A DNA stretch of 46,931 bases, taken from IMG/VR virus record IMGVR_UViG_2522572023_000008; one strand, written 5' to 3'. This document shows, piece after piece, positions 21,001 to 24,000 of the stretch; position 1 is the stretch's first letter, and every line of letters starts with the position of its first letter. Source of the stretch: a virus. Its lineage: Duplodnaviria; Heunggongvirae; Uroviricota; Caudoviricetes. Made by a program: the position numbers.

Positions 21001-24000
21001 GCATCCAGCCAGTCATAGACTATCTGTACCCAGGTGGTAAACGGACTGTACGCCGTCCAGATATGGAACGTGATGGAGCGCGGCGGCGGAATTTCATCAC
21101 CCCGGGCGCTGAAAAACGTCAGACCGTCACGGGTCCACATGCCCGTGTTTTCACAGATCCACCGCCCGTTGCTCTGGTCCAGTTCAGACTGATGGATCAC
21201 GCAGCCATGATGTTCACAGAGGTAGAAAACACTTTCGGGGCTGTCCTTCTCCCATTTAAGCCCAAAAGGCGTGGACTCATCGCCAAATTTCAGATACTGC
21301 GCCTCCCCACAGTGCGGGCAGGGCACATAAAAACGCATAAAATGCGCCGACTCGTTAGCGGCTTTTTCGATCTGGCAGGTGCCTTTGATTTTAGGCGTCG
21401 AGCCGCGAATGGATTTTGGCCACACCGACCCCTCAATACGCTTATCCCCCAGCAGGGTTGGCGAGCCCTCTTTTTCGACATCCGGCTCGAACGAGGAAAG
21501 TTCGTCATAGCAGACCACGTCCACGGATTTTTCACGGTAGTTTTTGGCGGCAGCGCCGCCCAGGCACCAGAAACCGACGCCCGATGAAAAGCGTTTCAGC
21601 GTGAGAGTATTGTCACGATGTTTACGACCCAGCCATGGGGAAAGGTCTTTCAGGCATGGCACGTTCCGAATCGTCGCCTCCACGTGAGACTTCATAAAAT
21701 CTTCAGCGGCAGAATCCGTGGGCTGAAAAAGCAGACTGTTTCGGGATTTATGCTCAATAAAATACCCGACCACCCCCAGCAACATCTTTGTATAGCCAAC
21801 ACGGGCAGATTTAATCAGGTTAACCGTGCGAACCTGGTCGTTACCCATACAGTTCATAATGGCGATCTGGAATGGCAGCGTTTTCCATTCGCCCTCACCG
21901 TATGAGGATTCTTTAGGCAGATAATAATTTTGATCAGCCCATTCAACTGCCGTCATTGGTACAACCCTGACCAGAGGCTGCAGCGCAACCGAAACGGCAG
22001 CCATCATATTATTCAGTTGTTGCTCTGATATATTCATCGAGTAAATCCGGTAATTTATCCCCTGCCCGCGCACACTGATTTGCCCCCTTAGCAATAAGGG
22101 TTTTCAGATGGTCAAGATGGCGCGGTGTTAAATCAGGAAACTGTCGCTGCATGGATAAAGGGATGGAATCAAGCGTACTGGATAACGCCATTGCCAGCTT
22201 ACTGAGGGCAAAAATACAGAACCCGGTGTCAATAAGTTTTCCTTTTGACACCTCATTTTTTAACTGCTGTGTAACAGCCTGTTCTGCTGTCAGTTCCCAT
22301 CTGGCAATAAGCAATTTCTCCTCATAGTCGTCTTCGCTATCGCCATCAGGCACATCGTTTTTACTTCTCCTCAGATACGATATGTAAAAATCGCGCCAGG
22401 CATCCAGATCCAGTTGCCCTCGCTTATTCGATATCGGGGCACCCGGCAATTTCTGCAATCTGCGAAGCTGGCGATCGGTCAGACTTAAATGCCTGGCAAC
22501 TTCAGTCTGCGTAGCCACTCCTCACCTCGCAAAAACTCTCACCTCACAATCACAACAAAACCGGTCATGTCCGGTTTACATGTCTGTTTTTTGTTCATGT
22601 CCGGTTCACAGAAGACCTGTTTTTATATTTTTCATATAGTTAACTTGAAGAGAAACCGGACATGGATCCCGGAAAATTTTCATAAATAGCGAAAACCCGC
22701 GAGGTCGCCGCCCCGTAACCTGTCGGATCGCCGGAAAGGACCCGCAAAATGATAATAATTATCATCTACATGTCACAACGTGCATCTACGCCATCAAACC
22801 ACGTCAAATAATCAATTATGACGCAGGTATCGTATTAATTGATCTGCGTCAACTTAACGTAAAAACAACTTCAGACAATACAAATCAGCGACACTGAATA
22901 CGGGGCAACATTATGTCATCAAAGAACAGAACCCGCAGAACAACAACCCGCAACATCCGATTTCCAAACCAGATAATTGAACAAATTAACATCGCTCTTG
23001 ACCTGAAAGGTTCAGGTAATTTTTCAGCGTGGGTTATTGAAGCCTGCAGAAGAAGATTAATTAATGAAAAATATTCTCAATTTGTACCCAACAAAGACAA
23101 ACACGACCAGAGCACCTGTTCAGACAGGTTTACTTAAACGACTTATATATGACACAAAAAGCGACCACTAAAGTCGCTTTTTCTTATGGTAACAGGCAAT
23201 AACTCTCTCAGATATTTTTTAGCATTTTTTTGACCGCGCGTTTCCGGACGTATTCTGTTCTCCTGTCCCTTTATATCGTCGGAATACCCGCCGCTCTTCA
23301 AATCCCATTCCCAACTCAGAATGTAGTCTGTTGACCGCTTGTTTTATTTCGGTCAGGTTCACCGGTGAAACCGGAGTCCGGCGCGCCTTACGCAAACACT
23401 CTGCTCGTTTCTGTGCCGCCACTTTTCTTTTCTGGTCATCACTTAGCTGTACCATCACTTTTGCCCATCGTTCAGCTGCTCTCCGGTACAGTCCTTTTTT
23501 CTCCAGACATTCTGCCACGTGATCATGTAGCATAAGTGACCTCCGATTATCTACAGACTGCCATCCTGAATTTACCTTCCCTTAATGAAATAACAATAAA
23601 AAACAAACCACGCAAAAACAATAAAATAACACACAAAAAAAACTAAATAATAAACAAAAATAATCACCTTATTTTATTATTTTTTGAGGGGGCAATTACT
23701 GAACAAAAAACGCTGACTATATACTCAAAACCAAACAACTATTCTGCCAATCAGGTATCATGGCAACACACGGAATTACCGTGTTTTTGCCTTCTCTGCC
23801 CATACAATACGGGCATATACTTCATACTCTATTGTAATATTTCTATCCATGCGCCCCACTCCATTTACCTGTAAATAATATTCAAAATATTTATCACAGA
23901 AATCGTTTTTGTCCATGAACTGAGCACACTATAAAGTCCGGAACTGACTCTTTGTTAAATTACCTTAACGTTACCAGTAACACCTTCATAACAAAACATC

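Follow-up and report, generated by a model that had tools for sequence, protein, structure and literature searches.

The stretch of DNA analysed here (46,931 nucleotides, IMG/VR record IMGVR_UViG_2522572023_000008; below called the window) carries, between the lysis genes and the cohesive-end site of a lambdoid prophage, a small gene behind a long AT-rich region. This raises the question of what the gene encodes, and whether it ties the prophage to the virulence regulation of its host. An earlier note had seen in it a PerC-family-like regulator of 104 amino acids. The evidence set out below identifies it, with a probability of roughly 95%, as a pchA-type group-1 pch gene, i.e. a moron gene for a small regulator of the PerC family, situated at the right end of the prophage. 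The feature as such is already known: it is annotated in RefSeq, it is an extensively characterised virulence regulator gene of EHEC, and the pch genes have been under study since 2004. The elements of the locus are the following:

23999-24466, minus strand: Rz, last gene of the lysis cassette (PF03245, E 2e-46; RefSeq 'lysis protein')
24061-24246, minus strand: Rz1, a lipoprotein frame embedded in Rz
23711-23998, minus strand: distal upstream segment, conserved among copies and containing a doubtful 46-aa open reading frame (from alignments)
23776-23916, minus strand: this 46-aa open reading frame, of uncertain status (phrog_2157, E 1.2e-36)
23534-23710, minus strand: promoter-proximal segment, extremely AT-rich and hypervariable, with the leader and presumably the promoter (from G+C content and alignments)
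23540-23544, minus strand: Shine-Dalgarno sequence GGAGG, 6 nt before the pch ATG (read from the sequence)
23219-23533, minus strand: pch coding sequence, pchA type, group 1 (ATG start, 104 aa; PF06069 PerC, E 3.8e-44)
23156-23182, both strands: bidirectional intrinsic terminator between pch (minus) and the ylcI/ynfO-like gene (plus), from folding
22913-23137, plus strand: gene of the YlcI/YnfO family (DUF3950), a neighbour outside the pch unit (PF13132, E 1.3e-17; NF041551)
22702-22713, minus strand: cosN, the exact lambda cohesive-end sequence GGGCGGCGACCT, sole exact match in the window
22009-22518, minus strand: Nu1 (start at 22518), followed by the gene of the terminase large subunit
41412-41463, plus strand: gene of the small RNA DicF, on the prophage that also carries pch (full-length match to Rfam RF00039, 76.7 bits)

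The 104-aa protein exceeded the gathering score of the PerC profile over its full length (149.3 bits with a cut-off of 22.6; residues 1-89 aligned to positions 1-89 of the 90 in PF06069), and RefSeq lists it as WP_001303878.1, 'PerC family transcriptional regulator'. It was compared with the products of the five named pch genes of O157:H7 Sakai, taken by locus tag, and with that of perC of pMAR2. All 104 residues are identical to Sakai PchA (ECs_1091), while identity amounts to 99% with PchB and 98% with PchC. At the diagnostic positions the protein has V6 and V58 as in PchA (V6L in PchB and PchC, V58M in PchC). Identity is 40% with PchE and 29% with PchD. The match to PerC of EPEC in tblastn (47.1% over residues 2-88, E 1e-17; NC_011603.1, 18493-18747) is located directly 3' of perA and perB on pMAR2. 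Further, the length of 104 residues includes a C-terminal extension that is absent from PerC, PchD and PchE, the latter two having about 89-90 residues each. With the Pfam score and the identity to PchA, the PerC-family regulator of the earlier note was confirmed, and the alignment with PchA, PchB, PchC and PerC that it had proposed as a check turned out decisively positive.

At the DNA level, the gene with its flanks differs from Sakai pchA by 8 mismatches in 871 bp, none of which falls between -93 and the stop codon (-93 to +315). In the region from -178 to -1, two mismatches to pchA contrast with many to pchB and pchC. Judged from these alignments, the promoter-proximal DNA is clearly the pchA version, neither that of pchB nor that of pchC. 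A search of PDB sequences with the 104-aa protein returned no solved relative at E values up to 1, and NCBIfam holds no model for it. The single-sequence AlphaFold2 prediction (four helices; pLDDT 51, pTM 0.33) was too poor for a fold search.

The lysis cassette to which the earlier note had referred is indeed present, as Rz with Rz1 embedded in it. The further statement that the regulator gene lies next to cos holds only loosely: the gene is located between the lysis cassette and cos, but the YlcI/YnfO gene and the terminator intervene over about 0.5 kb. The cosN site is 505 bp past the pch stop codon and is directly followed by the lambda-like left-end sequence CGCGGGTTTTCGCTATTTATGAAAATTTTCCGG. 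The terminator has the structure AAAAAGCGAC-CACTAAA-GTCGCTTTTT, with A5 and T5 flanking the hairpin, and folding energies of -14.7 (minus strand) and -11.2 kcal/mol (plus strand). The orientation of pch is that of the late operon, with Rz before it and Nu1 after cos. In PhiR11_1 and Sakai Sp8, two lambdoid phages without pch, homology to the window breaks off where Rz ends (24021) and returns at 23060, inside the ylcI-like gene; bor and small open reading frames occupy the slot in which the window has pch. A cassette of about 960 bp (approximately 23061-24020) therefore fills the classical moron slot of the late region. It comprises the AT-rich upstream DNA, pch and the terminator, and stands between Rz and cos in place of the bor cassette.

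The window corresponds to the whole defective lambdoid prophage of the LEE-positive E. coli O145:H28 strain RM12761, inserted at the yodB / serU-mtfA site, which is also the integration site of Sakai Sp14 (yodB ... serU-mtfA). The 1.3 kb around pch are 100% identical to the chromosomes of RM12761 and RM13516. The integrase gene (44873-45923, plus strand), which adjoins a tRNA-Ser gene (45951-46040, minus strand) and mtfA, is frameshifted, so that the prophage is probably defective. Its cargo of type III secretion effector genes consists of nleB2 within the window and, just outside at the same prophage end, nleC (partial), nleH (frameshifted) and nleF. Other elements of the window are the gene of the anti-GcvB small RNA AgvB (28102-28163, plus strand), abutting STnc100 (28164-28354, minus strand), a hok/sok module (33675-33849, minus strand) and two phage tRNA genes (29130-29203 and 29307-29379). 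Strain RM12761 has four copies of the pch cassette; one of the others (NZ_CP007133.1, 814460-815308) is 100% identical to the cassette in the window over 849 bp. Out of 5,426 complete E. coli genomes, 673 contain the upstream DNA, and the same 673 contain pch; the median copy number is three. A gene copy with at least 99% identity was present in 687 of 688 matching records.

The role of the identical Sakai protein in LEE activation has been described. At the LEE1 promoter, PchA binds to DNA of low G+C content; activation of LEE1 by Pch takes place only while the promoter is repressed by H-NS, StpA, Hha and YdgT (PMC4764244). Occupancy of LEE1 by H-NS/StpA is lowered by Pch, for H-NS both in vivo and in vitro; ler is thereby de-repressed, and its product in turn activates the other LEE operons as well as non-LEE effectors (PMC4764244). 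The group-1 pch genes are required for full expression of ler and espA and for adherence, whereas pchD and pchE are not (PMC6265319, PMC4456613). The earlier note had stated that Pch proteins activate LEE, which holds for the identical Sakai protein at LEE1/ler (PMC4764244). Its suggestion that the prophage plugs into host virulence regulation is supported as well, given this activity of the identical protein and the LEE that the host lineage carries at selC (PMC3893438). In its O145:H28 host, the pch copy of the window would act on the selC LEE together with the three other copies.

Several inputs may act on transcription of the gene. For pchA, the upstream signals reported are Lrp (together with butyrate) and LrhA (PMC4456613, PMC7279287), LrhA acting on both PchA and PchB (PMC4456613). 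In addition, an SOS-inducing antibiotic strongly induces group-1 pch genes (PMC6265319). Since pch is co-oriented with Rz and Nu1, Q-antiterminated late transcription should pass through it. Upon prophage induction, such transcription would continue from Rz into pch, and read-through of this kind would explain the reported SOS induction.

At the level of translation, the small RNA DicF is a candidate partner. Its gene in the window lies directly upstream of dicB. Sakai Sp4 (pchA) and Sp11 (pchB) carry DicF too; in Sp14 (pchC) there was no DicF match at the gathering score. A model of a DicF-activated pchA mRNA was reportedly put forward by Melson and Kendall in 2019. In three reviews, translation of pchA is described as blocked by pairing of the Shine-Dalgarno sequence with a segment of the early coding sequence, and as released under low-oxygen or microaerobic conditions when DicF pairs with that segment (PMC7769764, PMC7873438, PMC9438474). 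The features on which this model depends are found here: leader and early coding sequence are identical to those of the studied pchA (-93 to +315), and the DicF gene is on the same prophage. In all transcript models tried, the Shine-Dalgarno sequence was predicted to be paired with a probability of 0.57-0.75, in agreement with the published leader, which sequesters this sequence (PMC7769764). Duplexes between DicF and the pch mRNA were searched with a 24-nt sliding window. The best predicted local duplex covers +15 to +38 of the coding sequence (-24.9 kcal/mol) and overlaps the segment that pairs with the Shine-Dalgarno sequence in the short-transcript fold. Whole-molecule RNAduplex comparison of DicF and the pch mRNA yielded meaningless full-length pairings and was dropped. 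The predicted folds agree only loosely with the published model of Shine-Dalgarno and anti-Shine-Dalgarno pairing and do not amount to proof of it. DicF from the same prophage may nevertheless be able to act on the pch copy of the window.

The DNA between the pch start and the Rz stop codon (at 23999) extends over 465 bp (23534-23998). The earlier note had described it as an extremely AT-rich region of about 450 bp with poly-A tracts; the composition stands, and the length is to be corrected to 465 bp. G+C content of this spacer is 0.333 compared to 0.517 for the whole window, and only 0.3% of all 465-bp windows have values this low. The 140-bp minimum of the entire 46.9-kb window (0.229) begins at 23546, and the core from 23560 to 23700 has a value of 0.255. 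Runs of at least five A or T occur at 17.2 per kb in the spacer and at 5.0 per kb overall, i.e. they are 3.4 times denser. A comparably high AT content is otherwise reached only in the first 1.1 kb or so of the window, by the type III effector gene nleB2 (1-981, minus strand).

From this composition, H-NS and other nucleoid proteins are likely to bind the AT-rich upstream DNA, and silencing of the pch promoter itself by H-NS, as the earlier note had assumed, is plausible. Matches to the H-NS nucleation motif TCGATAAATT with at most two mismatches were not enriched (35 found, 40 expected window-wide), and a single match, with two mismatches, lies upstream of pch. The helical phasing of A-tracts between 23560 and 23730 did not differ significantly from that in shuffled sequences (p of about 0.37). 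A sigma-70 scan of positions 22500-24600 gave five sites where 3.8 ± 1.6 were expected, and did not place the pch promoter. An Rfam search of 22500-24100 with a permissive E-value returned only a chance-level PrrF match and no known small RNA in the upstream region. In the literature search, neither H-NS occupancy nor hns-dependence of a pch promoter nor ChIP data for the locus were found. The documented link to H-NS runs the other way, with Pch displacing H-NS at LEE1. The butyrate response of a synthetic PpchA-pchA-PLEE1-gfp sensor required deletion of hns, a construct in which the contributions of PpchA and PLEE1 are not separable (PMC7279287).

Sequence variation divides the upstream region into two parts. 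Compared with the window, the copy of strain A25, which is the most divergent, has 73.6% identity in the proximal 177 bp (23534-23710), 94% in the coding sequence, 96% in the distal upstream segment and 100% at the 3' end. In the alignment of pchA, pchB and pchC (A3), 46 variable columns fall within columns 301-450, and the coding sequence has only three variable codons; the differences between the three genes are mostly within the promoter-proximal segment. Insertions and deletions in this segment among the pch copies sit in homopolymer runs. Such variation is in keeping with reports that the pch paralogues are differently regulated. According to these alignments, the promoter-proximal segment of about 180 bp changes far more rapidly than the coding sequence; on the module reading given below, this could retune each paralogue.

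The higher conservation of the distal half invites a different reading of the spacer, in which it would consist of two units, the distal one encoding a protein of its own (46 aa, phrog_2157), with no more than about 240 bp serving as promoter and leader of pch. Consistent with such a protein, the open reading frame is uninterrupted in each of the six copies compared, matches phrog_2157 with the E value given above, and is named 'hypothetical protein' in many GenBank records; moreover, conservation is higher in the distal segment than in the proximal. The substitution pattern argues against it, with 10 nonsynonymous and 2 synonymous changes and a pN/pS ratio which, on small counts and where computable, is about 0.5-0.8 compared to 0.25 for pch. 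Neither does the frame have a match in Pfam, nor was it ever called by PGAP, and the supplements on small genes from RIBOseq of Sakai contain no entry at its coordinates in any of the three Sakai copies. It is probably non-coding, and a division of the spacer into two units appears rather unlikely. On the plus strand of this region, i.e. antisense to the pch upstream DNA, a hairpin resembling an intrinsic terminator (ACACGG-AATTA-CCGTGT followed by TTTTT, 23768-23790) was observed. Its stem-loop (23768-23784) overlaps the stop codon of the 46-aa frame, and no known RNA family matches it. A weak promoter-like site is present on the same strand at 23651-23680.

Two other readings concern the function of the gene. 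The PerC domain is shared by PchE and PchD, which are also carried on mobile elements, and a PerC homologue of that kind would act on curli, flagella or biofilm instead of LEE. This reading was refuted by the alignment (40% to PchE and 29% to PchD, compared to 100% to PchA) and by the 104-aa group-1 length, and it retains next to no probability. More weight attaches to the view that the pch copy of the window contributes little, being one of four paralogues and located on a defective prophage, with LEE controlled by the other copies. The four cassettes in RM12761 and the frameshifted integrase fit this view, as does the literature on differential regulation of the paralogues, in which LrhA acts on PchA and PchB. 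On the other hand, the coding sequence is intact and its product identical to PchA, the promoter-proximal DNA is of the type of pchA, the best-studied active copy, and the Shine-Dalgarno sequence, the terminator and the DicF partner are all in place. Such a minor role is considered unlikely. The identification as a pchA-type group-1 pch gene on a moron cassette is retained as the preferred reading.

Pch stands at the top of the LEE cascade of EHEC, so that the presence of pch marks a prophage that contributes to the virulence regulation of its host. For the window, this confirms, in an outbreak strain of O145:H28, what is textbook knowledge on EHEC, and is no discovery. What it adds is a pchA-type promoter at an Sp14-type site, the hypervariable proximal segment, and the presence of dicF and effector genes together with pch on one element. 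A role of the cassette beyond that of a gene behind an AT-rich promoter, either as a virulence-regulation module or by virtue of a distal 46-aa protein or antisense RNA, or both, seems doubtful, with the chances well on the low side. As regards the module, the co-occurrence of the pch mRNA, its activating small RNA dicF and type III effectors (nleB2 and its neighbours) on one prophage suggests that the element may be a self-contained mobile module of virulence regulation. The distal half, which is conserved, may hold a real 46-aa protein (phrog_2157) or the template of an antisense RNA on the plus strand, with its end at the terminator-like hairpin (23768-23784).

Among known systems, the closest is pchA of Sakai Sp4, which has the same protein (104/104), the same terminator and, behind Rz, the same AT-rich spacer of 465 bp. 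It differs by eight SNPs in the flanks; in addition, Sp4 has been rearranged by IS629 and ISEc8 and occupies another site, whereas the prophage of the window is intact around cos and inserted at yodB/serU. PchB (ECs_2182, Sp11) and PchC (ECs_2737, Sp14) are likewise encoded between Rz and cos, and Sp14 shares its integration site with the window. The layout of Rz, about 465 bp of spacer, pch, cos and Nu1 is common to Sp4, Sp11 and Sp14. Both genes differ from that of the window at many positions of the promoter-proximal 180 bp or so, pchB especially.

PerC of EPEC E2348/69 (perABC on pMAR2/pEAF) belongs to the same Pfam family, and the motifs LE..G..RRA..RW..M and R..C are conserved between it and the window protein. 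Like Pch, it is an activator of LEE1 (PMC4764244). PerC has 89 residues, is plasmid-borne, is encoded last in the perABC operon and, under many conditions, is not needed for LEE expression in EPEC, whereas Pch is prophage-borne and monocistronic, has a C-terminal extension of 15 residues and is required in EHEC (PMC4764244). Finally, the pch cassette resembles lambda bor and other late-region morons in its position between Rz and cos, in having its own terminator and in a G+C content below that of the phage backbone. In contrast to bor, which encodes a lipoprotein and is transcribed against the late operon, pch encodes a regulator and is co-oriented with the late operon.
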